This document shows positions 3,850-59,025 of a DNA stretch of 64,000 bases, in pieces. The stretch spans positions 372,001 to 436,000 of the forward strand of contig AP026145.1 of the NCBI GenBank assembly GCA_030295235.1, given 5' to 3'. The notes under the pieces are model-generated. The model searched no databases, was not told where the DNA came from, and worked only from the letters and a program-made list of their open reading frames with translations. Position 1 is the first letter of the stretch, and each line of letters begins with the position of its first letter. Source of the DNA: Fistulifera solaris. Taxonomy: Eukaryota. A program made the position numbers and the translations under genes.

Positions 3850-3857
3850 TGACGTCA
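3850..3857. promoter_or_regulatory. TGACGTCA palindrome (aureochrome-box/CRE-like) about 400 bp upstream of AUREO1a
   Basis: The sequence is present, and TGACGT is the known aureochrome bZIP binding core. Function here is inferred. Confidence 0.3.
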
Positions 3858-14957: not shown

Positions 14958-17900
14958 ATGGATCCGGCGTTTAACCGTCCTTGGCGGGATGACAACGATA
15001 AACTACCTTCTCGTTATGGTCGATCGCGCTCGAAAGAGGATGTAGAGCAAAGCTATAGTGACTCGAAAAGCAATCGAAGAGCAGGAATAATTAACGAAGC
15101 CGTGGTGGATGGTGTACAATCTTCTTTTTCTGGATCGTTTTCCGGCGACAGTTCTCGGGAGAAAAAATCTTCTTCATCATCATCACGAAGAAAAGAAAAA
15201 GAGTTGCCAGAAGACAGAAAAATGAGAGTGTCATCCCGGAAAGATCGCGGTGATGATTTCGAAAGAAGGCACTCTTTGAAGCGACGAAATTCAGACAAGA
15301 AATCACAATCGTCGACAGAGGCAAAGATGTATACCGAAAAGACGTCTCTTCCGGGCCTCGGTCGGTCACACAAAAACTACGATGGTTCCGCCAATCTTTC
15401 CGATCGTGAAGAGCGTAGACGGCATCGTGGAAGTCGCCAAGATTTGTGGTCCGATCCGCCTCCGAAGTCACGCAGCGAAGCCATATCACATCGAGTTTCG
15501 TCGGAAGGTCGAAGCAGTCGCAACCCTATTCAAACAGAGGTAGATTTAGAACCCTATCGCCAACAATCTCAGCTTCATGTACGGGATCGGACTTCATTAA
15601 AGGTATCGGAGACAGCCGATTCACTTCGAACCATGAATTTAGATATTTACTCCGAAGTGAATCGACCCAAAGCCATGGAAGTGGGATCCGATCGCACAAC
15701 AGCGGAATCATCTCGTGAACTTCGGACTCGCCGTCTATTGGAGCAGCAACGAGAACGTCGTAATTCAAAGCAGGCACAGGTGGATACTTCGATACTCAAC
15801 CCAAGCCCCACGCATTTCCCGGCAAGCTCGCCCGCGGTGGAGAAATACTTGTCACGAAAGAATATGATGGATGGTATACAGTCCCGCGCTGAGACAGGAC
15901 GTTCCGGCAGCGGCTCCGATGATGATGAGAGGCTTCAATCTTTGCGGAGATCATCTTCTTTAACGAAAGCTTCACCGCGAGATTTTCTGATGGCGGCTCG
16001 TTCTTCGCAAAAGGCTACGACTACTACAGAATCAACCATGCAAAACACACAAAAAGCACCATCTTCAGGCAATGGATCTCCCGCGAATATTGTAAGAAGT
16101 TCTCAAGAGGCCAACGACGAAATCAATAAAACACTAAGTTCAGCGGTGAAAGGCTGGTCGACGTTTAACAGCCGACTTCGGCGTGCGGTCTCCCTAACGC
16201 GGGGCATTGTGACGCCGCTCTCCAAAGTGGATCAGTATTTAGCAAATCGGCACCAACAGAAACAGCAAACAGCGGACGAAAGTAAAGCCAGTCAATTCAT
16301 TCGCGTTCCTAGCTTTGATACAGATGCGTATTTAGATGGGTTGCAGCCGTCTTCGGAGAGTGGCGAAGATGAGGAAGAAGATGAAAAGGCTTTTATTGAA
16401 AGTTCAGATGATGAAGTGAAGGACGCTGCTACCTGGAGTGTCCGTGTCTGCGTTATTTCTGCTGTGGATTTGCCCGCAAGTGTCATCCCTTCGCTGCCTC
16501 TTAGCCCTGTATTAAAACTCGGGTTGGTGTCTATCCCTGGAACTCAAGATAAGAAAGCTGGTCATCTTGAATTATCGAAGAAAGTGGATAGTGACGGACT
16601 GGCTTCGTTTCCGAGGACCAAAATACGGTGCACCAGTTCCAGAGCCTTGTCACAGCGAGACAATGGCTCCGCTGAATTTCACGAGGAGATGCGATGGGAC
16701 AACGTTCGACGACCTCATCAAATGGCGCTGGCTGTCGAACTTGCATCTCGAGCTGTTTTGACGCCCGCAAATGCTCGTGAAAGTCCCGCGCACGTTGATA
16801 CTTCGTCATCAGGTCGTCCTGCGGGTCCTAGTACTGCTCTTCGCTTCGGTGCTATGTTCCGCAAGCAACAGAAGAAAGGTTCTAACAGTGAGATGGAGCA
16901 AGCTAACGCAGCAGCGGCTCTCGCCAAACTTCTTGTCGAGGATAATGCTCCGGCAGTCACATCATCAGCAGGCGAGCAATCTTCTGAATCACATGAACGT
17001 GGGCCATTGTTCGACTCGCACCCAGCGGTTATGAGGAGTTTAGCAGCAAGTCAGAATGAGGTCGATGTTCAACTTAATCCTCGTAATCGCCAGCGAAGGC
17101 GCACGCGGGTTACAGAGGATTTAAGACTGGGGTCTAGAATAATACCACTGGAAAGCCTAGACTTACGACAGGCTATCAAATCCGGCTTCGTGCGTGTAGA
17201 GCAGTGGATAGAGCTAGACGCGAGCCTGGACACAAATGCGCCGGACTTCGGTAGCCCGCGGCAAAGTTCGTCGAGTAAGCGAAGTCCAAGTGTACTATTG
17301 GAAGTAACTGTTGCGAGACGAGAGGTCCTCGATGATAGTGAGGATGAAATGGAACAGGAAGAGACAGAAGCAGCTTCAATACGCCGCTCATACTCCAAGC
17401 GCGCATCCCTTATCGTAAAAAATCAGCTAAAACGTGAAGCTCCTGTAGCTGAGGTGAAATCTTCGGACGACCCTATACTGGAGCCAGGCATTATTGATTT
17501 TGCCTGTGTTATGGGCGCACGCGACATCGGTGACCAAAAATTAGATGATGGTGGTAGAGGATGGGTGAATTCGAATCCTGAATGCGTTATCTTGGATCGA
17601 TTCCCTGCTACGGACGCTTTTCATCAAGATAGGGGACGCAAAGCTACCTTAGCGGAAAAAATAGAATGGTTTTGTTTTCCCGAGGGAATTAGATTGTGGC
17701 GAGGTACAACTCCTCCAAATGCGGAAGAAATGAATTTGAAGCGTTTCTCTTCTTTGTCTCCTGGATCTACGTCGTCCTCCACAGCCCTTTTCGACGCCTA
17801 TCTTGGATGCACTACATCGTTCTCGTGGTTTGTCATTGCTTCAAACTCAGATGAATATGGTTCAGAACTTGTAAAAACATACGGTGCTGTCATTCGCTTT

Positions 17901-20900
17901 TATGTGCCCGCCCCGATCGGCATAGATCCAAAGCAAGATGATTTTGCTCAATTTATTACAGACGATAAAAGTCAGCGATCAGATCTTGTTGAGCGAAAGC
18001 GTCTTTGGGTTCCCCCTGGCAATTTGCTTGACATCGAGTCTGCCCATCGTCGGAATAATGGAAGCGATGCTGTTGCGGCTCTGTGATGCTTTGTCTATCA
18101 GTGGCATTCCCGAGGATCTTTCATCGTCTGGTATAATGAAAGAGGTTGCGCAGGTTGTTGTGAACTTTCACAGGCCAATTCAAGGTGTGGTGAACTGCTC
18201 TATACCTTTTCTGTCCGGAGACCCATTTCACGTGGCGCTTCCACCAAGCCAAGGTTTGCCTTCGTTGCCACATGGGAATGCAATATCGACGGTTTGCCGC
18301 CTGCTTGGAGCAGATGGTCTCAACACTTTATTAGCTGCTTTGCTGACTGAAAGCAAAATTCTGTTGCACTCAGATGATGTTGCTAATCTTTGCTTGGTCG
18401 CTGAGGTAGTCACTGCGCTAATTTACCCCTTCCAGTGGTCTCTACCTTACGTGCCTGTTCTGCCAGCTGCGATGATGGAGTTTATCGAAGCCCCAATGCC
18501 CTATTTGCTGGGAATTCCGTCATGCAACATGAAGCACATTGATCCTAGTGTTCTGGAGGACGTTGTCGTTGTAAATATAGACCAAGGCTTAGGTGACTTT
18601 TCGGAAAGCGAGCAGGGCAGAAAACAGATGTCTAAAACACCAACACCACTTCCACTCCCTGTCGCCGTCAGCATTGAGAGAGCAGTAAGCAAAGTGTTTC
18701 GCGCAGGCGAGGATGCAGAAGCATTGAATGACGATAGCCGAGTGACTGGGGTCCAAACTTTTCCGCGGATGGAACCCGAAAGTGTCATAGAAAGAGAGTT
18801 TCGACTTTCTGTTGCCATTGATATTTGCGGTCTTACACGGGGCTTGGAAGAATGTTTAGTCTATGCCTCGTCTTCCCAGCCGGTCTTTAATGTCGACAAG
18901 TTCTTGCAAACCGCACCTGCAATGTACGAGGAGCAGCGTGGCTATAGCTCTAAGCTTCACTTTAGAGGAGAGCCTTCTACTCAAAAAGTTGTTTCGCCCA
19001 TGTCAAGGAAATTCTTGTCCACTTTTGTCAACTGCCAACATTTTCATCAATTTCTTGAATTAGTCAACGACGACCGCCTTGCTTTATTCCACGATATCAT
19101 GGAAGTTTGGAAAACAGGAAGGTCACAAAAGACACTATCTTCCAGCCACTTGAATACGATGCTGTTATTTCCCGTTTATCGAAAACCTTGAAGAAACGGG
19201 AGGAAAAAATACCAACTTTTCGTATTCTGAAAAATGTAGATGATAAGAATGAACCAGAACCGAAGTCGGGAACCAAACGTTTTCCATTTGATTTGCTACA
19301 TCACCTTGTTGCTGACGATGCGTCTGCGAATGACGATAACCTTCCTCTGTCGGTCGGCGTCAAACAGGTATCCGTTGCTTACCTTGTCGAACTGGAAAAG
19401 AATCCCTGGCGCTACCGTTCGCTTTTCAGCATAGACACTGAAGATCCAGCGGTGGCCAGGACACTTGTGATTTCGGAGAAAATTAAGCTGCGAGACGCAA
19501 TTGGTGAGCGCCGTTTCCAGGCATGGCAGATGTCGAAAGAAGACGATAGCTTTAGCATGCTTTCAGAAGAGCCGGGAAATGCTTTTTCGTCTGAACCACT
19601 CGATCTGAAAAGTCTTCTACAATACGCCGACTCATCGATTGAGAAAGTTATTGGCACATCTGAAGACAGTCAGAAGAGAAACGTCGTTGAAGATGCCAGA
19701 AGCAGAGACGCCATTCGGAGATGTCTTCAAGATCTCGCTCTTTCCACTGGATCCACCGCGGAGCATAAGATATTCAATGAGAGTCTGGTCAAGCAGGCAG
19801 AAGATGCTATGCGTAACCCTTCTGCTAAAAACTTCTTTCTTAACGTCTTGAGCCAGCGAAAGGGCTCGGATAGCCAGCGAGCGGACTTCAACACAAGACG
19901 CCGCACGACAGTGTTCAACACTGTGTCATTGTCGTCAAAAGTAGAAAATGAAGCATTTGATATTCTGGTGAGGTTGGGGTGCGCTTTGCTTGACGACTGT
20001 GCACAGAGCCGGGACTTTGAAACTGCTGCAGTCCTTTTGAAGCTCACTGCTGGCTTATACACATCAGTCGCGTCCAAAGAAGGTGAAAACGCGGTTGTTT
20101 ATATGACATCTCGTATTGGAGGCCACCATGTGTATGCAGAACTTGGCGTTTGGGAGTCGGTCATGAGATCTCATCTGACTGCTCGTCACGAAACGTTAAA
20201 AGAAGACAAAGCTTCGTCGGGAGAAAGTACTGATGTTGAGGTGGATGAGTATGAGGCAACAATTTCAACGCTATACGAAATGGTTGCGTATGGTATACCG
20301 GCAGAAGAACTAGCAAGGTTTTCTTCTTGGAAAAGCAAGAAAAATGGGTGGTTCAAAAGCGAGAAAGGAATGTCGCTCCTCCTACTCTCAAAGAGACTGA
20401 GTGGCCGCCGGGAGCAGGGCGTGACGACCTCAAGTGGTGCTACCATCAGCGATATCGATTCTTTGGGATTATCAAAACCATATGTGGACAAACGTGTTGG
20501 GAGTCACGACTTCGAGAATATTTCGCTCCACTGGATTGAAACAGGATGGTGCCACCCTGCCGCAAAATCTGCTCGACGACTGGGTGCTTCGGACACACAC
20601 GTGAATGCCAAACGACAAGGGACACAAAATATTCTTAACCTGCTCGACGAGCAGCAAAGTTCACAGCGGCATGAAAAGCGCATGAAACGATCAGCTGTCA
20701 CTGCTATGTCGTATGTTGGTTCTTCCGTGGTTGCAACGGGTGGGCTCGATGGTGGTGTTTTTCTTGCTCGCAGAGTTCGTCTAGACCGTAAAAGCCGTAC
20801 CGTTGACAAGGGTCAGCATGACGAGAAGTGGGATACTTGCCTTGTGAGAGGGATGCATCTTGACTGGGGAAGTTCAGGTAGTCGCTTCGCCTCTGTTGGT

Positions 20901-22253
20901 TCTACAACGGGGGCTGACGGTGAATTTGGCGTTGGGGCTGTTTCCTGCCTTGCCACCACACGCGCTATTTCTCATACCGTTGACTCTCCCACCTCAAAAG
21001 ACACGGCAGAGCCTCCAGACGAGCATGACCTTTTGAGGGAAATGGAAGGATGCCGAGTTATTGCTGGTACAACATGTGGTGATTTGCGTGTCTGGTCGAT
21101 AAAAGATGTATTTTCGGCTGTGTTCTTTGCAAAAGGAAACGAATCAACGAAGTTCGGTGCTAGCGGCAACCAAGGAACTGATTTCGCTGCCGGTAGCTCC
21201 CTTACCCGATTAAAGTTCTCGTTACGAGGAAGGGCTCTTTCTGGGCATCGAGGTGGTGTCTCGTGCGTTGATGTCCCTTCTCCAATATTCAGACCAGATT
21301 CGATAATTACTGGTGGCGCAGATGGGCTCATCAAACTATGGAGCTTAAGGTCGCCCAGTATATCCGGAATTGGGCAGCGCGGAGGAGAAGTGGATCCGAG
21401 TCGCATCGTCCAATCTGCCCTGCCGTCCAGTCCCCGAACAACTGCTGCTCGAAGTGGAGATGCTTTGAGTATACTATCAGGACACGGTGGTCGTATCCTT
21501 TGTGTGAAAACCGCTTGGCATGGCGACCGACTTTTGTCCTGCGGAGCTGATCGCACAGTCAGAGTTTGGGATATATCTGGAAGTGGCGGGCGCTGCATAA
21601 ATACGTTGTCGGGACACTTTGGATGGGTGACCAAAGTCAATCACTGGGGCCCGAATACCATTATATCTGCTTCAACAGATCGCTCTATCGCACTTTGGGA
21701 CACCCGTATTCGAAGCACACCGCTCTTTGCGTTACGACATCATCTGGCGCCAGTGTCCGACATTCTGGTTGGAGCTCGAACAGATCCGATTATTGTGAGT
21801 GCTGGACTGGACGGTCAAGTGGCGGCATGGGATTTTCGAAAGCTCACCGGTAGAACGAACAGCTCTCCTCTTGCGAGTTTGCCTGATAATAAGAAGTCAC
21901 ATCGTTGTCAGGTAATCCGGGATCCCGTCGGGAATTTGAATTTGAGAGATCATGAAAGGCATCGACACGTTGCTGGTACTTTGCTATTAAGCAGAGCATC
22001 GGTTCGAGAAAATATCAATAGTGTTTATTGTCTTGGATCGGAAGGAACCATACGAGAATGGGATACTATGAGCGGAAGAATCCTCTCGGAGCATGTCACT
22101 GGTCATAGTGACGCCATCAGTGGTTTTTGTTCGGTTGGACAAGACGATGCGATGATGGAATCGTCCATCGAAGGTACAAGAAGAGGCTTGGCGACCACCA
22201 CGATCAGCGCATCATGGGATGGAACTGTTCGGTTACGTCGTCTCATTGGATAG
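14958..22253 (+). CDS. Very large C2-like + DENN (uDENN/cDENN/dDENN) + WD40 protein, putative Rab GEF; frameshifts near 18012 and 19150
   Basis: VRVCVISAVDLP (C2-like); FCFPEG; LLTESKILLHS..LIYPFQWSLPYVPVLP..EAPMPYLLG (cDENN); repeated GH...WD motifs at the C-terminus. The three ORFs overlap end to end. Confidence 0.85.
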
Positions 22254-31794: not shown

Positions 31795-33496
31795 CTACTT
31801 GTTTTTTGACCTCGATGAAGTCCGTTTGTTCGTTGCAACCGTTCTCGGTCGCGAGCTTCCCCTTGCACCGCCCCGAGAAGATGGCCCGAGTCTACTGGGA
31901 CCGCGGCCAGCTTTGGTGCTTGGACTGGTTTGCTGTTGGGCATAATCTGATTTTCGCGACGACAATCCATCAATTGGCTGACCGGACGTGACAGCGCGCT
32001 CGATGGCATTCGCGAGCACTTTATCACGCTTTGCTACTAACGCAGTGACTTTTCCTTTCTGTCCTTGTCGCGCGGTTCTTCCGGTTCTGTGTAAGTAATC
32101 CAGTGCATTCAGGGGAAAGTCAAACAAGACCACATGGTCTACCGTCGGAATATCGAGTCCTCGCGCTGCCAAATCCGTGCACACCAGTACTTGGTTTTGA
32201 TCACTGCTGCGAAACAATTTCAGATTCTCCAAACGAGCAGCCGAGTTGAGTTCTCCATGGTAAGCCAACGATGGAACAGATACTTCTGAAAGTGCAAATT
32301 GCACGGCTCGGCAAGAAGCGGCAGTGTTGCAAAACACCATTGTACGTGCGGACCTTTGTGACGCCAGCAAATCCAGCAATAGATTAATTTTGTCCGAGCC
32401 ACCCACATCGACGAATACTTGCTGCAAATGTGGAACTGTTTGATGTAGTCCTTTCGCTTTTAACACTTTCATTTTGGGAAGAAGCAAGAGTGGTTGATTC
32501 GGGGCCGATGGCTTGGCTGCCGTATTCGTTTGATGGTGCTTCTTCGCGCCCACCAGTTCATCGTCGCCCAAAATTTTTTGGATGGCCTGTGTCATGGTGG
32601 CGGACGTGAAGACCAACCGCGGAGCATCCACCTGCAAGTCCGTAGCGGGGTCGATCCCTTTTGGCCAGCTTGCTTGTGATACATAATCGGATACAGCAAT
32701 TCACGCAAGTCACCCACGAATCCCTGTTCGACAATGGTATCCATCTCATCCAGTACAATGTGTTGCACTCGGCTGAGATATATGTTACCGTCTTTCCAGT
32801 GTTTCAAAAGTCGTCCCGGGGTAGCAACTACAATATCAATGGGACGGTCGAGATCCTGTCGTTGTCGACCATACGACTTGCTACTCCCGTACAGTCCACC
32901 CGCACAAGAAAGCTTCAAACCATGACATATCTGCTTGACAATTCCAGTAATTTGCACAACAAGTTCTCGCGTTGGCGCTAAAATAATGAGTCTCGGTCGC
33001 TTGCTGGGACGTTCGCCATCTGTCGATACGTCATGTAGTTTACACAGTTGCAAGAGAGGCAAGGCGTAGGCGAGCGTTTTTCCCGACCCCGTCGCGGCTA
33101 GAAATGAAACATGATCTTTTGTTTTAATACAGCAGGAATAGCGAGTTTCTGGACCGGCGTTGGAGAAGTGAATCCGAGTTCGTCGCGCACAAAGTCGGAC
33201 AGAAGAGGCCACAAACCCAGACTATTCCATGTGACGGATTTTCCGCCGTCTGTCTCTTCCTGAGATTGCTCTGGATTCGTAAAAGGAGCTCTGCTTTTCG
33301 AGAATGCGGAAGCGTCGTTCGTAGCGAAACATCGAACGCGCGGAGCAGATTGTAACAAGAACGTGTTGTCCGACGGAACGACAATGTTCGCAGCGAGCTT
33401 CCTTCGATCAAAACGTCGTAATGCGGTGAAGCATCGCGCCCTTCCTGCAATCATGACAAATATTATTATCCAAAAGAGGTCATGATCACCAATCAA
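31795..33496 (-). CDS. DEAD-box RNA helicase, probably organelle-targeted (frameshifts ~33105, ~32640)
   Basis: Q motif FTSPTPVQ, ATGSGKT, PTREL, TPGR, DEMD, SAT, ARGLD and HRTGRTAR; signal-like leader ending ARC-F. Confidence 0.9.
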
Positions 33497-38353: not shown

Positions 38354-40297
38354 ATGGAACAAGCATACATAACCGAAGGAACCTCTATCGACAAGGTGAG
38401 CCTCTGTGGATTACAGGAAATTAGTCGTTCTGTCGTGTGTCATTTCTTGATTATCCGTTGTTGTTGATGTCGTGGGTGAACTTTTGGTGTACATGAATTC
38501 TACATTCCTTTCTGCTTGTTACCCTGTTTTTGTTTTCGAAGCTATCCGATGGAATCTCTCTCTTTCATTTCTTTCACATTTTTCAAATGCATTGTCTGTT
38601 GAAATTTATTTGACTAATAACAAAACCTTTTGTCTGATGTTTCATCTCAACACGCCTTTCTATTATAATAGGGCGAAAATGCACGCTTGAGTTCCTTTGT
38701 AGGAGCCATTGCGATTGCCGACTTGATCAAAACGACACTGGGACCACGAGGACTCGACAAGATCTTGCAAAAGTCGATCCGAGTGATCAAAGTATCACAA
38801 TCACCAACGATGGAGCCACTATTTTGAAGTCCGTTCATGTCGATAACGCGGCAGCAAAAGTTCTTGTGGATATTGCGAAAGTGCAAGACGAACAAGTGGG
38901 TGATGGGACCACGTCCGTGGCAGTATTTGCCGGAGAATTACTCCGTCAGGCGGAAAATCTGGTCAACAATCGCATTCATCCACAAACCATATGTGATGGA
39001 TGGCGATTGGCGAGAGAAACAGCGCGTAAAACACTCGAAGAAGCTGCGACAAACTCGTCCGAAGATACCGAGGCATTTCGCAAGGAATTGATGGAAATCG
39101 CGCAGACCACGCTTTCGAGCAAAATGCTAACGTTTGAGAAAGCGCATTATGCTAAGCTAGCAGTAGATGCGGTGCTGCGTTTGAAAGGTAGTAATAACTT
39201 GGATCACATTCAAGTACTGAAGAAACCCGGCGGTTCGCTTCGAGATTCGTACTTGGAGGAAGGATTTTTGCTCGACGGAAAATCGCCAGGTGTGGGTCAA
39301 CCGCGCCGTATCGAGAAAGCTAAGATTCTTCTCGCGAATACAAGTATGGACACAGACAAAATCAAAATTTACGGAAGCCGTGTTAAGGTCGACAGTATGG
39401 ACAAAGTAGCTGCGATCGAAAAAGCTGAAAAAGATAAGATGCGAAGAAAGGTGGAGAAAATTCTGGGACATGGGATTTCGTGCTTCATCAACCGTCAGCT
39501 TATCTACAATTATCCGGAGTCATTGTTTGCTGGTGCCGGTGTTATGGCGATCGAACATGCTGATTTCGATGGAATTGAACGATTGGCCGCAGTATTGGGT
39601 GGTGAAGTAGTCAGCACATTCGATCGACCCGATCTTGTGACCCTTGGGGAGTGCGACATTATTGAAGAGGTAAGTCAAGTTTGGACCCTGTATCTGTTCT
39701 CTCTCAAAGTTGTACGTCTCACTTTTTCGTCTTCTTTCGCTTACATAGGTAATGATTGGTGACGACAAAGTCCTTCGTTTCGGTGGCTGCAAGTCCGGTG
39801 AAGCGTGCTCCATAGTCCTTCGCGGTGCTTCTTCACACTTGTTAGACGAGGCGGAACGATCGCTGCATGACGCACTAGCCATTCTGATCGCTACAGTGAA
39901 AGAACCGCGAACTGTTTATGGCGGTGGCTGCACAGAGGTCATGATGGCTGCGGCAGTTGATCGTGCTGCTCAGGAAACACCGGGAAAGAGAGCTTTGGCC
40001 ATGGCTGCGTTCGCCACAGCCTTGCGACAGTTGCCGACTATTGTCGCTGACAATGGAGGCTATGACGCGGCAGAACTCGTTACGGAGCTACAAGCGGCCC
40101 ATGCGGCAGGAAAATCCTCGTTTGGTCTTGACATGGAAAAAGGATGCATAGGTGACATGAAAGAACTGGGAATTCGTGAATCGTTTGCGAGTAAATTGAA
40201 TGTTGTTATGAGTGCATCCGAAGCCGCGGAGATGATTTTGCGAGTAGATGACATTATCAAGGCTGCACCACGTCAAAGGTCTGAAATGGGATATTAG
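38354..40297 (+). CDS. CCT2: T-complex protein 1 subunit beta; introns 38396-38671 and 39670-39748
   Basis: [79 protein letters not shown]. Confidence 0.95.
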
Positions 40298-41476: not shown

Positions 41477-41700
41477 TTTATAAATTTAGAAGTAATTCTC
41501 GATTCAAAAACACTTTGATGTTTGCAACAACGACAATAAAAATCGCCGTCCGCGAGTTCGTGAATCATCATCTCGGTCACGATTTCTGACCTAAATTATT
41601 ACTCCGTACTCCGTATTTCATTATATTTGAAGCATGCTCTGAAAGAATCTACCTAGCCAGAAAATTGTATTATTCTAGACGTCATTACATTCAAAAGCAG

Positions 41701-44103
41701 TTACAGAAAGTAATCATTTGACGCTTTTGCCCCAGGTGGGGTCGTTGTTGTGTTGGGCCCTCGAGTGCTGGACGCACTTTGCAAGGAGTTTGCGGTGGCA
41801 TTGTCGGGCGTAATGTCGTATTCTCGGGGCGGCTCGGGCACAGAGAGATGCGGAGTCGGTGCCTTTTCAGGTTCTTCAGAAGCATAGGCGTTCGACAGCT
41901 GCATGTCGCTGTTCTCACTTGTATAAGCGTCGCTACTAGGCCTCTTGCTCGCTGTGGAAAACGGGGTTAACTCCTTGGGATTTGTTTGGTAGCATGAAAC
42001 TAATGCTACCAAATGAGCTCGGATCTTCTTCTTCAATCATAACATCTTCCTTCAGACTTTCCAAGTAGTGGCTGCTTTTTCGACTTTTGAATTCAATGCT
42101 CGATTGTGACGAATTCATACTTTCTCTGCTATCTAATTTTGCCCGACTTTGCATCCGTTCGCTTTTCTCTTGGAACTGGAAGTCACTGGAGAAACCAGAT
42201 GCGTTCGAGGAACCCGTACCTCTTGTGGATCGACGCTGACGTGAATCTTTTGCCTGGGCTCGGATCGATTCCTGGAGAAGTCGCCGCTGAGATCCCTCAC
42301 TGCGCCCGATAAATCGTTGCGCAAGAATAATTTTAGGCACGAAAATCAGCAGAAGGACAGCGCAAGCAATCGTAAAAATCATAAACACAATGACCAAATA
42401 GAATGCTTGCGGTGACTCTTTAACAACAAAGAGTATCGGAATACCGGAAAGCATGGCCTGGAGAAGCGAAGCCATGGACGTTGCAATATATTTCGATTCT
42501 GAAAATTCAGACTCAATGTAACGCGCTTCGTATGCTTGCCAGTTGGCCGCAGCTAAAAGACTAAGATTCACTCCAGCCAGTGGGAGAAGGAAACGGAGAA
42601 CGTTCTCCGACTGGCACGCGCCATAGGTAGCAATCACACGATCCCAACCATCCAGACCCGGCAAATCTTGTCGGGTATAAGTCAATGGATCAAGAATACT
42701 CCAAAGTGTCAGAATCAATGTATTTGCCATAAGCAAACCAAAGAAAGGCAAAGCGACATCCTTGGGTTTGATCTCAACACGGGCAAATCGAGATTTGCTG
42801 TGAAAGATCTTGTTCACGCGCATCGTCTTAGCAAAGAGCGCAGAGAAGCTGATGGTGAAACCGGTGGAAGCCAACCAAGGAACAGACATGCAGATGAGTT
42901 TGGCTTCTGGGTCCGAGGATTCAAATGGAGTACCATTGTCGTCGAACGAAAGCGGAATGAGAGCAGATGCGAGAACCAACACACCCGCCGCGACCATTAT
43001 CAAGAAGAAAGGTTGCGCAGCTTTAACGATAATCAAGTTTCGGTAAACAAGAACCCAGCATGAGAAGCCAATCGCAGCAGCGGCGATGAGGGCAAAAGAC
43101 AGAACCCAACAATGTTGAGTGAGCCAATAAGGTTGTTATCAACCTCCAGGGGCGGCAGCTCTAGCGGAATCAGTAGATGCGACAGCACGTTCGTCCCAAT
43201 AACATCTCCTTTAATGGGTTTGTCTTGGATCAGCTTCAGCAGCGTATCCACCGACAACAGTCCCATTTCATATGGCAACTGCCCTACGAGACCCTGGACG
43301 TACCCTCTATCGAGAAATTCGAGCTGATTCGGCATTGCATCTCCTGAGACCAGCGTAATGTTTTTATCTCGGTGTTCGTTGACGAAATCCTTCCAGCAAC
43401 AACTTCTCATCGGCGCGCCCATGACCGGAACAATTGCTGTCGGTGGGGGATCATAGCTGGCAAACTCCTGCATTTTCTCAATCGCTATTGACACATTAGC
43501 AGCAATATCAGCAGGAGAGTCTATCACTTCTCTCCACAAAACTCCTTTTTCACGTTTCATTTCCTCCTGGAAGCCGCGAACGCGTTCCTGAAGATTCGGA
43601 CTATCAAACGTCGTCAGTAACGCATAAGTTCCTCCGTTTGGTTGCAATTGTTTGAGAACCTTGGCAATCTGGGCTCCGAAGAAAGTATTGTCTGTGCCGA
43701 TGTATGCCTGTCGATTAGAAAGTCGTGCGTCACTGTCGAAGGTAACGACGGGGATTCCTTTCTCGACCGCACGATTGATGACATCGACAATAACTTCAGC
43801 GTTGCGGACGCTGATCGTTATACCGTCCACGAGGTCATTGTCGATGAGATCTGCGATGATTTCGGACTGCAAAATTCCCAGTTCATCTTCTTCTTCTGTT
43901 TCCGGTCCTACATAACTACAGTTGACCTCCAAGTTCATACGACCCCCGAGAATGAGGGCGCCATCGATACAACCTTCTCGGGCACCGTCGAAGTAAGGGT
44001 TTGTAAGCGCTTTAGTCACCATCGCAATTCTAATCAACCCATTTGCGTCCTGCGCTCGAGCCAGCAGGAATGGAAGGACAGTTATCAATGTCTTAAAGTA
44101 CAT
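41701..44103 (-). CDS. Class C-like GPCR (7tm_3, GABA-B-like) with an N-terminal periplasmic sugar-binding (Peripla_BP_4-like) domain, copy 1 (frameshifts ~43095, ~41960)
   Basis: Signal peptide, NPYF, GIPVVTFDSD, YIGTDN, ERVRGF and LVGQLPYEMG (RbsB-like), then IVKAAQPFFL, CMSVPWL..GFTISFSALFAKTMRVNKIF, EFSESKYI and LLIFVPKI. Confidence 0.88.
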
Positions 44104-45116
44104 GGCAGACTTCTCTATTTCTAAATTTGTATTGTTCCTCCTGGACAGCCCTTGACACAGATAAAAACCTCCTTGAAGTCTTCTCTTTTCTCCCTCACGT
44201 TTCCCTTTTTTTGCTTGATTTAGTCAGTGTTTCGTATGAAAGAGAAGTAAGAAGAATGGCACAAGGTTTATCTAAGCGGAACGTGCGTTATACCAGGTAA
44301 ATCTTCTTTTCGTCGTCGCCGTTGTTGCGCTTGTTGCATGTGGCTCTGCTTCATCATTCATCATTCTCCGCCACAGTCAGCATGCGGAATGACCTTCTAC
44401 TCTTTCAATGATAGAACTCAAGCGAATAAGAAAATCTTTATCCTTGATCTCTATGTCCAGCTATTTCGTCATCAACTGTCAAATGCCAGACTCGAAGGAC
44501 CTTTTTCTGTCTCCAAAAACAGTAACGTCAATTCTATTAGGGCGTTCGTATAATTGATAGTATCTTATATCTTATTACATTACAATCTACAATCTCATAC
44601 AGGCCATATGTCCTACAATAGTGATTTCGACAAGCGGCTTCCCCTTCACGTTTCAAGAAAGCATCATCGATCATTGCGAAAAATATTATTACCGGTACGT
44701 CGTCGCTTTACCGATGGCGAGGATGAAGTCAAAATCCAATATTTTGTCAAGTTTTTCGTAAATCATGACTTTTGAAACGCATTTCAGTAGAGGTAGACAC
44801 AATTTCAGATTTTTGTATTAATGTTAACGAAATAATGTAATTTTATTCTATTTCTAACGATGAAAACAGTAACATACGATCCTCAGAATGGCTAAGGTTG
44901 TGAGAATGACATAGGACCGCGAAAAAATGAAACGATGCAAAATTATTGAGCCAAAATTCTTGCCATCAACCTTGAGCAATGAGCAGCACGTGATGATCTC
45001 TCTTTATAAATCTCTTAACGACTAATGATCTCGACTAGCTACGACAGTAACTATGTTATAAAATAGTCAAAGATTAACATGACTCGTCTACGAGGTTGCG
45101 ACAATGGGGTGCCCGT

Positions 45117-47468
45117 CTACAAGAAGTATTCGCTCGGCTTTTTCTTCTTCGGCGCTGTCGTACGAGCCGATTCCGGTGAAGCCAGCTTTTGCCCGTGATC
45201 CGCCTTGAGATGAACGTTGCTGATTTGGTGTTCTTTCGGTGGCTCTGGCACCACAAGCTTCGACGCTTTTCCAGGTTGTTCGGTATGTGCGAGCTCCACG
45301 TCGCTGCATTCACTCGGCCACGCCTCGCTGTCGGATGTCTTGTTGCCAATGAACTGGGGCATATCTCGCGGCGCCTCCGGTGACGAGCTATCTTCCTCGA
45401 TCATTACGTCTTCCTTCAAGCTTTCCAAGAAATGGCTATTTCGTTTGTTCTTGCTACCACGAGTGGGGTGCGAAGACTTTAGGTTTTTCTCGGCCGTTCG
45501 CCTTTGCACCGTTGTCATCCTGTCCCTGAGACTCACAGGACGACGCCGCGGAAAAGCCGCCCGATGGATTCGAAAGACCTGAGATGTTGGAGGATCGTTG
45601 GGGCCGCGCGTCTTTGGCACGAGCTCGGATGGACTCTTGGATGAGACGACGTTGCGAACCATCGCTGCGCCCAATAAATGGTTGCGCGAGAACGACCTTG
45701 GGGACAAAGATCAGCAAGAGGACAGCTGATGAAATGATGAAGATCATAAAGACAATGACCAAGTAGAATGCTTGAGGCGACTCGCGAACAACAAACAGTA
45801 TCGGAATACCGGACAGCATGGCTTGGAGAAGCGAAGCCATTGACATGGCGATGTACTTGGACTCCGAGAACTCCGACTCAATGTAACGCGCTTCGTACGC
45901 TTGCCAGTTCGCGGCGGCGAGAAGACTGAGATTTACAGCCGCCAACGGAAGAAGGTAATGAAGAACGTTGTCTGATTGACATGTGCCGTACGTGGCAATT
46001 ACTCGATCCCAACCATCTAGGCCAGGCAAGTCCTGTCGCGTATACGTCAATGGATCGAGTACACTCCAGAGAGTCAAAATCAAAGTGTTTGCCGTGAAGA
46101 GGCCAAAGAAAGGCAAAGCAATATCTTTTGGTTGAATTTCAACTCGGGCAAAGCGAGACTTGCTATGAAAGATCTTGTTCACGCGCATCGTCTTGGCAAA
46201 GAGCGCAGAGAAGCTGATGGTGAAACCGGTGGAAGCCAGCCACGGAACTGACATACACATAAGCTTGGCTTCTGGATCCGAAGGATCAAAGGGAATGCCG
46301 TTATCGTCAAAGGAGAGCGGAATGAGAGAAGACGCGAGAACAAGCACACCTGCGGCGACCATTATCAAGAAGGACGGCTGTGCGGCCTTCACAATTATCA
46401 AATTTCGATAAACAAGGACCCAACATGAAAAGCCGATGGCGGCAGCGGCGATAAGGGCAAATAGGCAGAGGCCGACAATACTGAGTGAACCGATAAGGTT
46501 GTTATCGACTTCCAAGGGCGGTAGTTCGAGAGGAATCAGTAAATGTGACAACACGTTTGTGCCGATAACATCTCCTTCAATATCCTCTTTTGGATCAGCT
46601 TCAAAAGTGTTTCCACAGACAGCATACCCATTTCATAGGGCAATTGTCCTACGAGACCCTGGACGTATCCTCTATCGAGGAACTCCAGCTGATTCGCCAT
46701 TGCATCTCCCGATACCAGCGTAATGTTCTTGTCTCGATGTTCATTAACAAAATCCTTCCAGCAGCAACTTCTCATCGGTGCGCCCATAACCGGAACAATC
46801 GCCGTCGGAGGCGGGTCATAGTTGGCAAACTCTTGCATCTTTTCAATAGCAATATCTATATTGCTTTCGATATCGGCAGGAGAGCCCGGTACTTCTCTCC
46901 ACAACTCTCCTTTCTCCCGTTTCATTTCCTCTTGGAAACCGCGAACGCGCTCTTGAAGATTCGGACTTTCTAGCGACGTAATCAATGCGTATGTGCCGCC
47001 GTTTGGCTGCAATTGCTTGACGACTTTAGCAAGCTGCGCCCCAAAGAAGGTATTATCTGTGCCGATGTAAGCACTTCGCACAGAGTCCGGTGAGTCACTG
47101 TCAAACGTAACGACAGGAATGCCTTTTGCCACAGCACGGTTTATAACCTCAATCAAGGTTTCCGCGTTACGGGCACTCACAGAGATACCATCAACGAGAT
47201 CGTTATCGATAAGGTCGGCGATGATTTCAGCTTGCTGGATACCAAGAATGTCTTCATCATCCTGTAGCGGGCCCACGTAGCTACAATTTACCTGCATGTT
47301 CATGCTATCGCCGAAGATGAGGGCGCCATCAATGCAGCCGTCTCCGGCCACATCAAAGTAAGGGTTGGCAATGGACTTCGGCACCAGCGCGATTCTAATC
47401 AAACCGTTCGCGTCCTGCGCTCGGGCTAGCAGGAAAGGAAAGAATGTTACCAATGTTAGAAAGTTCAT
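45117..47468 (-). CDS. Class C-like GPCR with an N-terminal periplasmic sugar-binding domain, copy 2 (frameshifts ~46590, ~45500)
   Basis: Same domain order and motifs as copy 1; highly similar sequence; C-terminus ...SEYFL. Confidence 0.88.
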
Positions 47469-48679
47469 GTTACTTTTCTTTAGGATCAACTACTTCGTTT
47501 TCTTTTGACAGCTCGGATTGATAATGTCAAAAGTTAAATCAGAAAGGTGATGCACACCTCGGACGAGAAATGAGAAAACAAAAGACATTCATTTCGTGAT
47601 TTTGGCATCAGACATCAAAGGGTTTGCGCTTCGGGTTTTTGACTTCAGAAATAGTAAGGACAATACGAGAATCTGTATCATGTCGCATGCCACAAGAACC
47701 GAAGATGACTCTGTGAAACACACTTCGTACTTCGTGCTCCTAATGGCTTCCTGCGTCAGGTTCAGAGATTTTGTTTTTCTTGCAATTTACTCATGATTGC
47801 TATTGATGTTAGTTTTTCACCGTGTTACAAGTATTAAGAGTTTGAATAAAATTCGTCGAAGGTCTTGGTCAATGGTTGTCAGTGGTTAACCTAGAGCCTA
47901 GTGCCTTGAGCTTTGAGTCTTTAGTTTGCTACCAAAGGTTTTAAATGCCAATTGCCAAAGAAGGAAGAGCATAGATCTTGTCGTGCTGCATGCTGTCGTG
48001 CTGTCGCCCTGCTTCCTAAGATCTTAGATCTTGAAAGGAGGGTATAAAGGGTAAACGAGGACTCTCTCTTAGGAACTGCTATCTGGCATATGACTCCCAG
48101 GGTACGAATGGCACGAGGCACGAGGCAACAGGCTACCGAAGATGGGCGCCCTAGGCCCTAGCTAGAGTCAAAGGCTAGAGTCTCTTGAGTCGAAAATCTA
48201 GAGAGAGAGTGACAGTTGATAAGAAAATGTGATGACAGGTGCAAGAGACAACCTGAGCATTGAAGCAGGCTCTTTGTATCAATTTGCACTATTGCCTTCT
48301 AAATCCTTCCGCCTCTTTCTCCATGACCTTCAAGTTCCAGCTTACCCAAGACTGGAATTTAGTCGCATTATACGCAGTTTCACTATCGTTGCGCGATCCT
48401 CAACAATCGAAGCGGACGACAGGGGGAACTAAAAACAGATTTAATTTGCCGATGACTACATGGCTGTATTCGTTCTAATACACAGCCCATACAGATTCTA
48501 GATACTTTAAATTTTGTGTGATACGAATGCTCTTATTTTGATGCTTCAAGAATGAGAAAACAAGAAGATGCGGGAACCTTGAGAATCTTAGTACGAGCTG
48601 GCTTCAAGCTTAAAGCACATCATTTTTGTGCAATTTGTTCAAGATGATATGTGCAAAGCAAAAGAGAATCAATTCGATT

Positions 48680-54613: not shown

Positions 54614-55786
54614 AGCCTGGACGGAAGAAAAATATAAATGGTCCGGTATTTCGCACGATAAAAGGATGTGTCTTTTCTCCTACCGACTTCCGAGTGAAAA
54701 GGGAACGCAACGCGCAGCTCGTGCAAGGAGCAAGCAATAATTTCGCCTCAACTCCAACAGAAAAAAACAGTAATTTAGATTATAGTGTAAAACAACAAGA
54801 CTACTTTACAACCATATATATATTATTTGGTCTAGATATGAGAGTGTGTTGTCCTGCTATGTTCTTAAGAACTTATTGCGCGTGTCGGTGTCGGGTCTTC
54901 TCTTTTGTTGGTTTTTACTTGTAGTAGAAGTTATGGAGGGAGTTTTTCCGCCTTCCGCTTTTAGCTCTCTTTCGTCATCACATCTAAGTCAGTCACGTCT
55001 TTCCTAGTCTACTACTTTGAACAAGCGTATGATGCGAAATGTTGAGAGCGACTTGCCGTTTACGAAGCACTCATTATGGTCTCTTTGTGACTTCTTTCAA
55101 GCAAGCGAATTATCGGCATAAGGTTCAATGGAAACCCTCTCTGGAATCATATCACTAACTTATTATGCAGCATAAGCTCCTAATGATGGTTCTTGAACAA
55201 AATCATTTGTTAACAGATGCGGGAAAGAATACGTTCATTGCTAGACTACCAGTATAGTGTCGTTGTTTTCGAATTTTTAATCTAAGGTTTTCAGCTGGAT
55301 TGAAATGGGAGACATACGGTTTCACACATATCAGGAAACGATACGCTTAGGATCAACACTGTCACTTTGATTGTGTTATCATTGGCAGCTTAACTTTATG
55401 AGAGACTTAGTCGAATGACATCGAAAATTGCTCAGCCGCCGACGCAGAAACAAAACTGACGTGTAAGTCAAATCATCGCCTCGGTACTCAAACTTACACT
55501 TTATTCTACAGTCAATCCTGTCAGACAATCGTGGAGACGGTCCAAGACAGACGGTTCATTCACGGGCAGCCATCAAGCGTCGAGATGAGCGAGACGAAGG
55601 AAAAGATGGAAGAAAAAGGTTGATGACGGTGGATGAAGTGAAACATTCGAATGATGCATTCACTCCATAGTTAACCCCGAGACAATTGAGTGAAACAAGT
55701 GCCAGGCGAGAAACAAGCCCGCAATCATCAAAGAGGAATTGCTTTTGTACACCAGATATTGTTTCACAGTTGCTACATTGAAGAAA

Positions 55787-58700
55787 ATGGAATTCATAAT
55801 ACGACAACCACTCTCGCTTCTATTACTCTTGCTTGTATCTTACGCTGTCATTATTGTTACGCCGTGCTGTCTAGCCTTCACCTCGCCGATCGGTCCGAGA
55901 CAAAGCGCATTCTCAAGGCACACGCACCCGAAAATTGCATCGTTCAGAGTTGATATTGATGTTGACGCTGTATTTGGAAGTGCCAATCAATCTACAGGAG
56001 GCGTAAGCTGGGGCGCCGACGATGATGACGGAGATTTTATTGATCCACAGAAAATCCATCAAGATCGGGTTGCAGAGCTTTTACAAGAGGATAACAAAGA
56101 CTTTAAAGAAATCAGGAGACAAAAGAAGTGGGGGAAGTTCGCCAACATTACGAATACAGATGAGCTACGTAGTGCACTACAGAAAGAAATGGAGCGAGTA
56201 GATGCCGAGCACGAACTAAAAGCCAGTATGGCGGCACTTTCTGGAGTAGAATATTCAGTGTTGGAGGCGAGGGAAACTGGATCTAGGGTATTCGACGAGG
56301 GTGGCAATGTTCACATAACTGCTGGATCAAAGTCATGGTTCGCTGAAGTTGATGATGAGCTAGAAAACGAATGGCAGACTTTAACAGGCGATCAGGGGCT
56401 AGATGTCCAGGTAGACGATACTTCCGGAAAAATTGTAACCAGAGACGCGCTTGCTGGAGTTCGAGTGGGAAGTGCTGGAGGTTGGACGTTGGAGGTATTT
56501 CCAGGGGATTTTGTCGTGCATCGAAAGTACGGAATCGGTCGCTTTGAGAGAACATGTCTTCGGCCAAAGACGAAACTAACACCCGAAGAAAAGAAGGCGC
56601 AAGAAGCCCGTCGAGGAGAGATTTTGACGGCTGAATTGAAAAAGATATCAGGTGGCGTTACTCCAAAAGATATCCAGGACATTAGGTCGAAGTTCGGTAC
56701 GGACGAAGACACTGATCCCATTTCAAATCCCCAATCCACCGTCTTAGAAATATCGTACGCCGACTCAATAGTCCATGTACCTGTGGAACGAGCATACCGT
56801 ATTAGTCGTTATCGAGCTGGAGATGCAGTTGTAAAACCCAAACTGTCCAGGGTTCGCGGAGAAGCTTGGGCCAAGGCAAAACGAAGAGTTGAAGACAACA
56901 CGCTAGAGATTGCTCAAGATGTACTAGCTTTGTATGCTACTAGAGAAATGCTTCAAAGACCCCCTTTCGATCCCTTGCTAGAGGACACAGTAAAACAATT
57001 TGAAAAAACATTCCCGTTTGAACCTACAACGGACCAGAAGAAATGCTTTGAGGATATTGAGAATGATATGGTTTGGAAAAGCCGCCCAATGGATCGGTTA
57101 GTGTGTGGTGATGTAGGTTTCGGAAAGACGGAAGTTGCATTTAGGGCCCTGTTTCGTACTGTGGTAAATGGAAAGCAGGCGGCTTTTCTCGCCCCGACAG
57201 GTGTTCTTGCTGCTCAACACTACAAGAATATCGTGCAACGTATGGCTGGTTTTGACGTCAACATATCTCTTCTTCGCGGAGGCATGACCCGAACCACCAG
57301 AGTCGGTCGAGAAATACGAGAAGAGATTGAATCGGGAAAAATACAATTGATTGTCGGCACACACGCTTTGCTTTCGAATGATCTAAAATTCAAAAATTTG
57401 GGGCTCTTAGTTGTTGATGAGGAGCAGCGCTTCGGCGTGAAACAAAAGAGCGCCTCAAACTAATATCTAGTGGTATTGACGTTTTGACGCTTACCGCTAC
57501 TCCAATCCCAAGAACTTTGCAGATGAGTCTTAGCGGAATCCGTGACACATCAACAATTCGATCGCCTCCTCCGATGCGAAAGTCTACAATCACTTATGTT
57601 CAAGATTTTTCGGAGGAGATGGTAGCAAATGCAATTCAAACGGAACTTGACAGGGGCGGTCAATGTTACTATGTTGTCCCCAGAATTTCTATGTTAGCGG
57701 ATGCTGAGGCACTGATGGTCAAGCTTTTCCCTGATATTCGCATCATTCAGGCTCACGGTCGCATGCAGAGAGGTGGTGCTGAGGAAAATGTAGCAAAATT
57801 CGCTGAAGGCAATTATGATGTTCTGCTCGCAACGACTGTCATTGAAAACGGAGTAGACATTCCGTCGGTCAACACGATCATTGTACAAAACTCGCAAGCC
57901 TTTGGTATGAGTACTCTTTACCAATTAAGAGGTCGCGTTGGGCGATCTAATCAGCAAGGCTATGCTTATTTCTTGCATCGCGAAGACTCGGTGACCGAGC
58001 AAGCTGCAATGCGACTGCAAGCGATTGGCGAGCTTTCGGAACTCGGAGCTGGTTTCGATGTTGCTAACAGAGATCTCGAAATTCGTGGAGCTGGTAGTCT
58101 CTTAGGCACAGAACAAAGTGGAATGGCTGCAAAAGTGGGTTTCGATCTGTATATGCGTATGCTCAAGAAAAGTATCCGTAAGTTGAGAGGTCTCGATTTA
58201 CCTGTTGTTCCCCGGACGAATATTCTGTTGGATACCGGCTGCACCCCCAGCACCTTCAAGCTACCACCAGATTTCATCCCCGACGAAAGTAAACGACGTA
58301 TCGAAGAAAGTAAAGCCCGATTGGCGGAAAGCACTGCAGCTCTCGTGAATATTACCAGTTTTTGGAAAAGTGAATATGGCCAGCTGCCAGCGAGCCTGCA
58401 GTCGCAATTGAAAACCATGCATCTCCATGCATGCACTCGTCGCTTGGGCATCGATCTGGTCGGATTTGTAAAATCAGACGAAGAGGGTATGTTCGATTGT
58501 GTTCTCAGATCACCTGGTCTCAGGCCACGACATTGGGGCATTATCCTATCGGAATTTCCTCGACCAGCTGCCCCGAAGGGTTTGGACGTAGTCTTCCCCT
58601 CTCGTTTTACGCTTTCGGGTGAAGATGAGATGTTCCTAGGAGGGAAAAAGATTGATCTGAAGCTGCTAACGGCCGAAGAAAGCGTGAACGAAGAAGAGGA

Positions 58701-59025
58701 AGAGGAGGTATGGGACGCCATGGATCAAGAAGAGCAAGAAGCATTGAGAGATATTGCTTCTGCAGTGAACGTGGAGAGCATGGATGAGATCGACATAGAT
58801 CAGTATCCGCGGTTTGTGATACGGAATTTTGAATCCGAAAGCAAAGCCGTCGACGCGCTACTCAAGTTGCTCCTTCCTATCTCTAAGGTAGTGCACGAGA
58901 AGCAAGAATCGCAGGCAGAGCAAGCAAAGGCAGCTGTAGAGCTGCGCAAGAAGCAAGATCTGTTGCGAAATCGGAAGGCTACGATGGAAAAATATGACAT
59001 GCAAAGAATGAACTTTGAATATTAA
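55787..59025 (+). CDS. mfd: Transcription-repair coupling factor (Mfd/TRCF), plastid-targeted (frameshift ~57445)
   Basis: Signal + CLA-F; GDFVVHRKYGIGRF (CarD/RID); MDRLVCGDVGFGKTEVA; VDEEQRFGV; LTATPIPRTL; QLRGRVGR; DLEIRGAGSLLGTEQSG. Confidence 0.92.

Follow-up and report, generated by a model that had tools for sequence, protein, structure and literature searches.

Tandem class C receptor genes of the diatom Fistulifera solaris, with a bacterial-type sugar-binding flytrap fused to a GABA-B-like seven-transmembrane domain

This locus raises the question of whether a eukaryotic G-protein-coupled receptor (GPCR) belonging to class C can carry, in place of a flytrap of the ANF/LIV type, a binding domain of the kind that serves bacterial sugar importers, and what kind of ligand such a receptor might sense. 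The stretch analysed, here called the window, comprises 64,000 nucleotides of contig AP026145.1 from the diatom Fistulifera solaris (positions 372,001 to 436,000 of the forward strand), and all positions below are counted from its first letter. Two genes lie head to tail on its minus strand, gene A (44103->41701) and gene B (47468->45117), and both have the same domain order: signal peptide, Peripla_BP_4 domain, stalk of 18 residues, 7tm_3 domain with seven transmembrane helices (7TM), and disordered tail. They are intact tandem duplicates of a class C (GABA-B-like) GPCR gene on the ‘H’ homeologue of chromosome 7. The reading favored here, with a probability of roughly 0.7, is that genes A and B encode GABA-B-like GPCRs whose flytrap is of bacterial ancestry and belongs with the substrate-binding proteins (SBPs) of CUT2 importers, that they are part of a large diatom family, and that the cleft of the flytrap holds a carbohydrate-like ligand.

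Both genes could be identified with deposited sequences. Gene A (41701..44103) is FisN_7Hh167 and gene B (45117..47468) is FisN_7Hh168; neither has an intron, each carries two 1-nt assembly breaks in the window, and the intact proteins are already in the databases for Fistulifera solaris as GAX20851.1 and GAX20852.1, respectively. The binding domains match those of P0206 (FisN_7Hh167) and P0204 (FisN_7Hh168) with 100% identity over 268 columns in each case, and a tblastn comparison of P0206 with gene A gave 98.9–99.7% identity. The tandem pair is present on both homeologues (7Hh167/168 and 7Lh167/168), with intact proteins deposited for both. An earlier note on this DNA, made from the letters alone, had placed two genes here, each with a signal peptide, a flytrap and a 7TM domain; their coordinates and strand are confirmed, and all of the quoted motifs (ARA-QD, NPYF, IPVVTFDSD, YIGTDN, ERVRGF, GQLPYEMG) were found in both genes. 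The predicted signal peptides, read from the hydrophobic N-termini with a putative cleavage site, span about 18 residues in gene A (44050..44103, minus strand, ending LLARA-QD) and in gene B (47415..47468, minus strand). For the 292 flytrap codons the ratio of nonsynonymous to synonymous substitution (dN/dS) between the two copies is 0.073, and for the 323 stalk-plus-7TM codons it is 0.077, with dS of about 1.5, from which it follows that purifying selection has acted on both copies since an old duplication.

In the window itself no single open frame covers either gene. Each is divided among three overlapping frames, and the breaks fall at different places in the two genes: near 43093 (in the first transmembrane helix, TM1) and near 41975 (in the tail) for gene A, and near 46587 (where the binding domain ends) and near 45484 (in the tail) for gene B. 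All four are 1-nt indels, three of them within runs of 4–5 identical bases and the fourth within a 2-base run. Public contigs from three sequencing runs (X1, X2 and X3, from two studies) were aligned over 41600-47600; X2 is a wetland metagenome from a separate study, while X1 extends over the spacers as well and is DNA-like. All three add a base behind 43093, where a T-run in TM1 is one base short (43093..43097, minus strand), and behind 46587, where an A-run of gene B is one base short (46588..46591, minus strand), and all three omit the base at 45484 in an A-run that is one base too long (45484..45488, minus strand). The surplus base in the C-terminal tail of gene A (41975..41976, minus strand) is omitted at 41975 in X1 and X2 and at 41976 in X3. 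Because the contigs of three public runs correct all four indels, the broken frames are assembly errors. The intact reading across the first break of gene B, LIQKEDIEGDV, is present in P0002 and P0204.

The fusion of the two domains can be followed in the DNA as assembled, before any correction. In gene A the binding domain, the stalk and the start of TM1 share a single frame, while in gene B a single frame leads from the stalk through all seven helices; frames thus run across the stalk in the raw DNA, and the fusion is visible without recourse to an intron or a corrected base. An intron between flytrap and 7TM was considered and rejected, since neighbouring frames overlap, the differences between the paralogues at the breaks amount to single bases, and no joint turned up.

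Coverage by the third run, X3, is confined to the genes: it spans both of them and leaves out the spacers 44414-45016 and 47429-47600, and spliced joints were absent from every run over 41600-47600. A 644-nt contig of X3, likely derived from RNA, corresponds to 46209-46851 of gene B; beginning in the flytrap's C-lobe, it crosses the stalk and ends in TM2 without a joint, in keeping with a single fused transcript. X3 also shows, before 45067 on the plus strand, a loose end made of 21 T, and the likely poly(A) site that this marks for gene B lies about 50 nt past the stop codon (45060..45067, minus strand). Genes A and B are probably transcribed. In X3 only, there is a 27-nt insertion at 45271, in the tail of gene B, that matches nine extra residues of FisN_7Lh168 (792 vs 783 residues), so both homeologues seem to be transcribed. 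A metatranscriptome (X6, 0.07 of words) contributed only four contigs on gene A, two of them at 90–95% likeness, from which nothing is concluded about habitat or expression.

The Pfam family Peripla_BP_4 (PF13407; cut-off, 35.1 bits) matches residues 26-295 of gene A (43219..44028, minus strand; 127.8 bits, E = 7.1e-37) and residues 26-294 of gene B (46587..47393, minus strand; 135.9 bits, E = 2.3e-39). At E ≤ 0.01 no Pfam family besides Peripla_BP_4 and 7tm_3 matched either gene, ANF_receptor (PF01094) and NCD3G among them, and with only these two domains per gene the proteins possess neither an ANF_receptor flytrap nor the NCD3G cysteine-rich domain of the mGlu/CaSR/TAS1R type. A sequence search of the PDB with the ectodomain (E ≤ 0.001) returned 35 chains, all 35 of which are sugar-binding, periplasmic-binding or LacI-type proteins and none a class C receptor. 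The best matches were 5hqj (2e-24) and GanP 6gq0 (3e-24), with E. coli RbsB at about 1e-5 and LsrB (3t95) the last of the 35 at 5.8e-4; no LuxP entry was among them, in a search that included no comparison aimed at LuxP.

Structure prediction led to the same assignment. An AlphaFold2 model of gene A residues 19-336, built from 77 aligned sequences, has a mean predicted local distance difference test score (pLDDT) of 95, and the Foldseek matches of this model in the PDB include 5hqj, GanP (glucose/galactose), the Thermotoga maritima glucose-binding protein, AraP (arabinose), XylFII, CbpA and RbsB. Template-modelling scores, normalised to the target, are 0.78–0.86 for 5hqj, GanP and AraP. The ranks shown among the top 50 are taken up by SBPs of bacteria, allose binders designed de novo, and LacI-type proteins, with no class C flytrap at these ranks. 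The ectodomain is a monosaccharide-type SBP domain of the CUT2/Peripla_BP_4 kind and not of the ANF/LIV type that animal class C receptors have; Pfam, the PDB sequence search and Foldseek agree in placing it in the RbsB subgroup, as had been recognised in the earlier note.

Connected to this flytrap is a 7TM domain of the GABA-B kind. The 7tm_3 family (PF00003; cut-off, 33.5 bits) matches gene A at 42332..43119 (minus strand; 128 bits, E = 6.6e-37 on the frame 41936-43135, with seven helices) and gene B at 45697..46485 (minus strand; 132.6 bits, E = 2.6e-38). When the 7TM sequence of gene B was compared with the PDB, 54 of 54 chains were GABA-B or metabotropic glutamate (mGlu) receptors, the best being GABA-B2 (7ca3_B, E = 1.1e-20), and the alignment with GABA-B2 includes the cysteine before TM3, FAKTxRV, the cysteine of the second extracellular loop (ECL2) and FVPK in TM7. 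All 72 full-length members of the family examined have C405, C497, K426, P590 and K591 unchanged, the helix positions being those of the P0002 model described below; the TM3–ECL2 cysteine pair, the TM3 lysine and the TM7 proline-lysine are what we take to be the hallmark motifs of class C.

The two domains are joined by a stalk of about 18 residues in gene A (43120..43173, minus strand; PLELPPLEVDNNLIGSLN), placed by the model of its paralogue and by conservation, and of 18 residues in gene B (46486..46539, minus strand), placed by the frames, conservation and the model; there is no cysteine-rich domain. When the intact protein of gene B (P0002) is modelled at full length, the model is confident over about 21-630 and displays seven helices, an ECL2 hairpin and helix 8; in it the last strand of the flytrap occupies 306-310 and TM1 starts at 329, leaving just 18 residues (311-328) between them. 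The stalk follows the pattern PLxLPxLxVDxN, in which P313 is invariant and L316 and P317 are nearly so across the 72 sequences. As a whole chain, the P0002 model is matched best by full-length GABA-B receptors (E = 2.5e-18, about 720 columns). The short linker to a GABA-B-like 7TM that had been described from the letters is this stalk, the 7TM having GABA-B2 as its best sequence match.

Beyond the seventh helix both proteins end in long cytoplasmic tails that are predicted to be disordered (gene A, 41701..42331; gene B, 45117..45696; both minus strand), the equivalent residues of P0002 (631-783) having pLDDT below 50; neither a coiled-coil nor any other Pfam family matched either tail. The tails are about 34% identical overall and have two islands in common, one containing (Y/F)LESLKEDVMIEE and the other being the extreme C-terminus, (D/E)YFL (minus strand; gene A, 42030-42075 and 41701-41720; gene B, 45385-45430 and 45117-45135). 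These islands may be sorting or docking motifs.

The architecture is that of a large family. More than 170 protein clusters combine Peripla_BP_4 with 7tm_3, and all of their taxon labels but one are diatom. Pennate as well as centric forms are represented among the named taxa: Fistulifera, Amphora, Cylindrotheca, Seminavis, Nitzschia, Entomoneis, Odontella and Cyclotella. Most of the family matches have no taxon name, and the apparent restriction to diatoms rests on those that do. The single other label is the transcriptome of a ciliate, Tiarina, and this sequence might reflect prey. A profile search gave 173 matches at E ≤ 1e-30, and among the matches listed 120 of 120 carry both domains; the two domains also occur together in 108 of the 111 longer matches. 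An exhaustive search with the flytrap only returned 2911 representative clusters at E ≤ 1e-3, of which 128 had E ≤ 1e-30. No Phaeodactylum tricornutum member was present by name among the matches listed.

Phylogenetically, the flytraps of the fused receptors form a group of their own that is nested among bacterial proteins. In a FastTree analysis of 273 flytrap domains, a branch whose local support is 100% has all 177 fused domains to one side of it and 63 lacking a 7TM to the other. An IQ-TREE analysis of 62 rows, rooted on E. coli RbsB, recovered a eukaryote clade (35 rows; support 100/99) nested among bacterial SBPs, and this nesting supports the capture of a bacterial domain, as had been suspected from the sequence motifs. 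The sister of the eukaryote clade, joined to it at 98/96, consists of 11 alphaproteobacterial SBPs (96/97) from Devosia, Kaistia, Bosea, Rubellimicrobium, Microvirga, Chelatococcus, Bradyrhizobium, Prosthecomicrobium and Acetobacteraceae, with 38–44% identity to the domain in the window, which suggests an alphaproteobacterium-like donor lineage. The bacterial relatives are genuine parts of transporters: of 80 loci, 78 have a CUT2 permease next to the SBP gene and 77 an ATPase.

One candidate for a fusion in a bacterium was examined and set aside. It lies at 2733-7033 on a 674-kb contig (L008) labelled ‘MAG: Pirellulaceae bacterium’ (MAG, metagenome-assembled genome), and its flytrap falls inside the diatom clade (98/88 with P0217). 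Since the receptor is divided between two open reading frames (ORFs) as in eukaryotes, and genes for a Cys-loop ligand-gated channel and a RING-finger protein lie on the contig too, it is most likely a eukaryotic or diatom contig that was mis-binned into a planctomycete MAG.

Within the eukaryote flytrap clade there are also two groups that lack a 7TM, each with 100% support (P0250/P0272/P0269 and P0253/P0264/P0275/P0295). These proteins have a signal peptide, Peripla_BP_4, a Ser/Thr-rich spacer and a short hydrophobic C-terminus resembling the signal for a glycosylphosphatidylinositol (GPI) anchor; judged by this layout they could be free or tethered binding proteins, and they might serve ‘headless’ class C GPCRs of diatoms as free co-receptors, in the way that chemoreceptors are served by bacterial SBPs. 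Two proteins of about 1000 residues (P0098 and P0104, the latter from Nitzschia sp.) carry PF02423 (ornithine cyclodeaminase/mu-crystallin) as a third domain beside the flytrap and 7TM, and among the relatives of the flytrap is a protein of bacterial style (P0105, 661 residues) in which a C-terminal Peripla_BP_4 is fused to the ATP-binding cassette (ABC) permease domain PF02653.

What the flytrap might bind was approached by aligning E. coli RbsB and LsrB with the 273 family domains and counting residues over the 177 fused ones, at ten positions that we take to be the ribose contacts of RbsB. Genes A and B have the same residue at all ten, and seven of the ten contacts are kept: N35 (RbsB N13; N in 101/177), Y37 (F15; F or Y in 164/177), F38 (F16; F in 149/177), D123 (D89; D in 171/177), R174 (R141; R in 175/177), D255 (D215; D in 172/177) and Q275 (Q235; Q in 176/177), with R174 and Q275 invariant in the 72 full-length members. 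Given these seven positions, the cleft retains the hydroxyl-gripping clamp of monosaccharide binders. The equivalents of the other three are S124 (R90; S in 154/177), I200 (F164) and M228 (N190), the last two variable across the 177. E. coli LsrB has W, S and W at the positions of RbsB R141, D215 and Q235, and in the diatom proteins these three are R, D and Q. As aligned, the specificity-tuning positions of the cleft are changed and the predicted pocket is not LsrB-like. Of RbsB and LsrB, with which the earlier note had proposed to compare the pocket, the resemblance to RbsB stands in this alignment and that to LsrB does not. A sugar ligand for the products of genes A and B is plausible on these residues.

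Taken as a receptor, the protein would work as follows. The signal peptide would place the flytrap outside the cell, where a small carbohydrate-like ligand would enter the cleft between the lobes and be held by D123, R174, D255, Q275, N35 and Y37/F38, positions whose conservation is observed. Closure of the lobes would then be passed through the 18-residue, proline-rich stalk to the 7TM bundle, by analogy with GABA-B, and the bundle would signal to a heterotrimeric G protein, with the long disordered tail in a putative regulatory role.

Several points weigh against this reading. Three of the ten RbsB contacts (R90, F164 and N190) differ or vary, which makes ribose itself an unlikely ligand. 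Every NCBIfam equivalog for sugar SBPs scored below its cut-off, the best being RhaS (56 bits; cut-off, 342), with RbsB (NF007936) at 27.1 bits in gene A only (cut-off, 337). Among the bacterial relatives the operon context is mixed. Of the 80 loci, 50 have xylA and 47 have xylB no more than 5 kb away, a context confined to one lineage (the Bradyrhizobium type) and for that reason a weak hint of pentoses: the loci with xylA and xylB are all from Bradyrhizobium or Bradyrhizobium-like (including alphaproteobacterial MAG contigs with high identity to locus L020), and the closest relatives, Devosia, Kaistia, Bosea and Rubellimicrobium, are without xylA and xylB. The literature searched, which fell short of most subscription journals, yielded no ligand for any member of the diatom family. 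Coupling to a G protein is presumed. For the reconstruction of the genes, X1 or X3 may stem from the assembly’s own sample, so that full independence of the corrections is not assured, and the assignment of X3 to RNA is a guess backed by the coverage pattern and the poly-T end.

The same pocket evidence bears on an alternative in which the fold of a sugar SBP was kept and retuned to a non-carbohydrate ligand, such as an amino-acid derivative, a diketopiperazine-like pheromone, an organic acid or an ion, so that the receptors would be chemosensors unrelated to sugars. The equivalents of RbsB R90, F164 and N190, changed or highly variable over the 177 fused domains, would fit such a change, as would the failure to reach any sugar-SBP cut-off; the expansion of the family to 128 representative clusters at E ≤ 1e-30 suggests many specificities; and in Seminavis, according to the passages concerned in PMC7296067, 15 GPCR genes with a GABA-B InterPro domain respond to acyl-homoserine-lactone treatments, the type of their ectodomain being unstated there. 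The polar clamp of D, R, D and Q, together with the N and two aromatics, is nevertheless kept in 57–99% of members, the ligands of the nearest solved folds are glucose, galactose, arabinose, xylose or ribose, and the bacterial sister clade consists of SBPs of CUT2 ABC transporters, all of which render retuning away from sugars rather unlikely. Much more improbable is reception of autoinducer-2 (AI-2) in the manner of LsrB or LuxP, the quorum-signal sensing that the earlier note had offered beside sugars. Diatoms do live with bacteria, and LsrB is matched weakly, both by the entry 3t95 in the PDB search and by its NCBIfam model (NF011937) in the N-lobe (E = 1.7e-7 in gene A and 9.3e-12 in gene B). 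Yet these NCBIfam matches extend over only about 130 residues and reach 30.4 and 44.5 bits, respectively, against a cut-off of 384, LsrB is the most distant of the 35 PDB matches, and the W, S, W of LsrB is replaced in the diatom proteins, so that the suggestion of quorum sensing, as judged on LsrB, is weakened and finds no support.

Two further alternatives concern the pair of genes more than their ligand. Class C receptors work as dimers, and genes A and B could encode an obligate heterodimer like GABA-B1/B2, in which one partner binds the ligand and the other couples to the G protein. The conservation of the tandem pair on 7H and 7L, the age of the duplication (dS of about 1.5) and GABA-B2 as the closest solved 7TM are in its favor. 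The division of labor it supposes is at odds with the agreement of the two copies at all ten pocket positions, owing to which neither looks ligand-blind, with equal constraint on both 7TM domains, and with tails in which no coiled-coil or other Pfam family was found; an obligate partnership of this kind appears distinctly improbable. That the genes are decaying pseudogenes with real frameshifts, as two frame breaks per gene might suggest, is scarcely credible given that all four indels are put right by contigs of three runs from two studies, that intact proteins are deposited from both homeologues, that dN/dS is about 0.07 in both domains, that the coverage is transcript-like with a poly(A) end, and that frames are broken likewise in further genes of the window (e.g., a Cpn60_TCP1 gene at profile position 317/318), which points to assembly quality.

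Returning to the favored reading of a GABA-B-like receptor with a captured sugar-type flytrap, its parts can each be set beside a known system. With the metazoan GABA-B receptor (GB1/GB2) the products of genes A and B share a short stalk without a cysteine-rich domain, the TM3–ECL2 cysteines, FAKTxRV and FVPK, as well as the best 7TM and whole-chain matches, whereas the flytrap of GABA-B is of the ANF/LIV type and binds GABA (γ-aminobutyric acid), theirs is Peripla_BP_4, and their tails have no detected coiled-coil. With bacterial CUT2 SBPs (5hqj from Burkholderia graminis; GanP, 6gq0/6gt9/6guq; 2h3h; AraP, 6sw4; RbsB) they have the fold in common, although those proteins are soluble periplasmic partners of ABC importers and the diatom domain is covalently fused to a eukaryotic 7TM. 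XylFII-LytS and LuxP-LuxQ likewise employ an SBP for sensing and not uptake (XylFII 5xsd/5xsj/5xss is among the matches), but there the SBP docks non-covalently on a histidine kinase, in contrast to fusion with a GPCR. Sugars are sensed by a class C GPCR in TAS1R2/TAS1R3 as well; this analogy is functional only, as TAS1R2/TAS1R3 have an ANF-type flytrap and a cysteine-rich domain, and their ectodomain subfamily is unrelated to that of genes A and B. The class C GPCRs of anaerobic gut fungi described in the relevant passages of Seppala et al. 2016 (PMC5168858), in which the ANF flytrap is replaced by a prokaryote-like SBP domain of sugar uptake, are an independent case of flytrap swapping; the fungal domains are SBPs of Type II, another fold class, and the diatom domain is Type I, Peripla_BP_4.

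In diatoms the architecture itself is on record. As has been reported by Port et al. 2013 (PMC3727952), in the sections that treat these receptors, three of five P. tricornutum class C GPCR genes, not singled out in those sections, have N-termini like ABC sugar transporters, the candidate class C GPCRs of diatoms have no cysteine-rich domain and have C-termini like nothing known, and expressed sequence tags cover 100% of residues 1-688 of GPCR1A. A Peripla_BP_4-like N-terminus and 7tm_3 on one polypeptide are thus common to those receptors and to genes A and B; the P. tricornutum receptors are other genes of another species, for which orthology is suggested by the published description and their lengths (626–799 residues). 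The link to GPCR1A/1B/2 is drawn from the paper’s description because no P. tricornutum member was among the matches listed. Fu et al. 2020 (PMC7452957) report, in the passages matched, that expression of GPCR1A or GPCR4 shifts P. tricornutum to an oval, surface-colonising form; a ligand for GPCR1A or GPCR4 is not discussed in these passages, and the words ‘periplasmic’ and ‘sugar’ are absent from the main text. In a survey of choanoflagellate GPCRs (PMC12716839), searched by term, the combination of Peripla_BP_4 with 7tm_3 is not mentioned, and no paper naming the two families together was found in the literature searched. As the architecture and these very genes were already on record, in Port et al. 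2013 and as GAX20851.1 and GAX20852.1, the claim that the pair was the best candidate for a novel system in the window fails. The fusion is real, the genes are members of a known, ligand-orphan diatom family, and as a discovery the finding is modest.

Diatoms account for a large share of ocean photosynthesis, and what their surface receptors detect is barely known. With a large, constrained family whose sugar-type pocket can be read from the sequence, what diatom GPCRs sense becomes directly testable. The family is also a clean natural case of modular receptor evolution, in which a bacterial transport-type domain replaces the class C flytrap, in parallel to the Type II swaps of gut fungi. A broader scenario is tentative, its odds falling somewhat short of even: a CUT2 protein from an alphaproteobacterium-like donor would have replaced a GABA-B-like flytrap and given rise to hundreds of receptors for the direct sensing of free monosaccharides or carbohydrates related to them, drawn from the diatoms’ own or bacterial exopolymers or from dissolved organic carbon; these receptors would steer surface colonisation, mixotrophy or diatom–bacteria interactions. 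If direct sugar sensing holds true, no GPCR family before this one would have been shown to read sugars by way of an RbsB-type cleft. Its practical value could lie in a new sensor scaffold and, given the GPCR1A phenotype of Phaeodactylum, in a handle on biofouling.

Elsewhere in the window, other genes are likewise cut into overlapping frames with contiguous Pfam profile coverage, which points to indel errors throughout the assembly of the window. They include the Cpn60_TCP1 gene (38638-40297, plus strand), whose split frames cover profile positions 21-317 and then 318-489, a uDENN/DENN/WD40 gene in three frames (14922-22253, plus strand), and two DEAD/Helicase_C genes in split frames (31795-33221, minus strand, and 55694-59025, plus strand). 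An ORF at 2241-2927 on the minus strand encodes bZIP_1 followed by PAS_9, an order known from stramenopile aureochrome-type light-sensing transcription factors.

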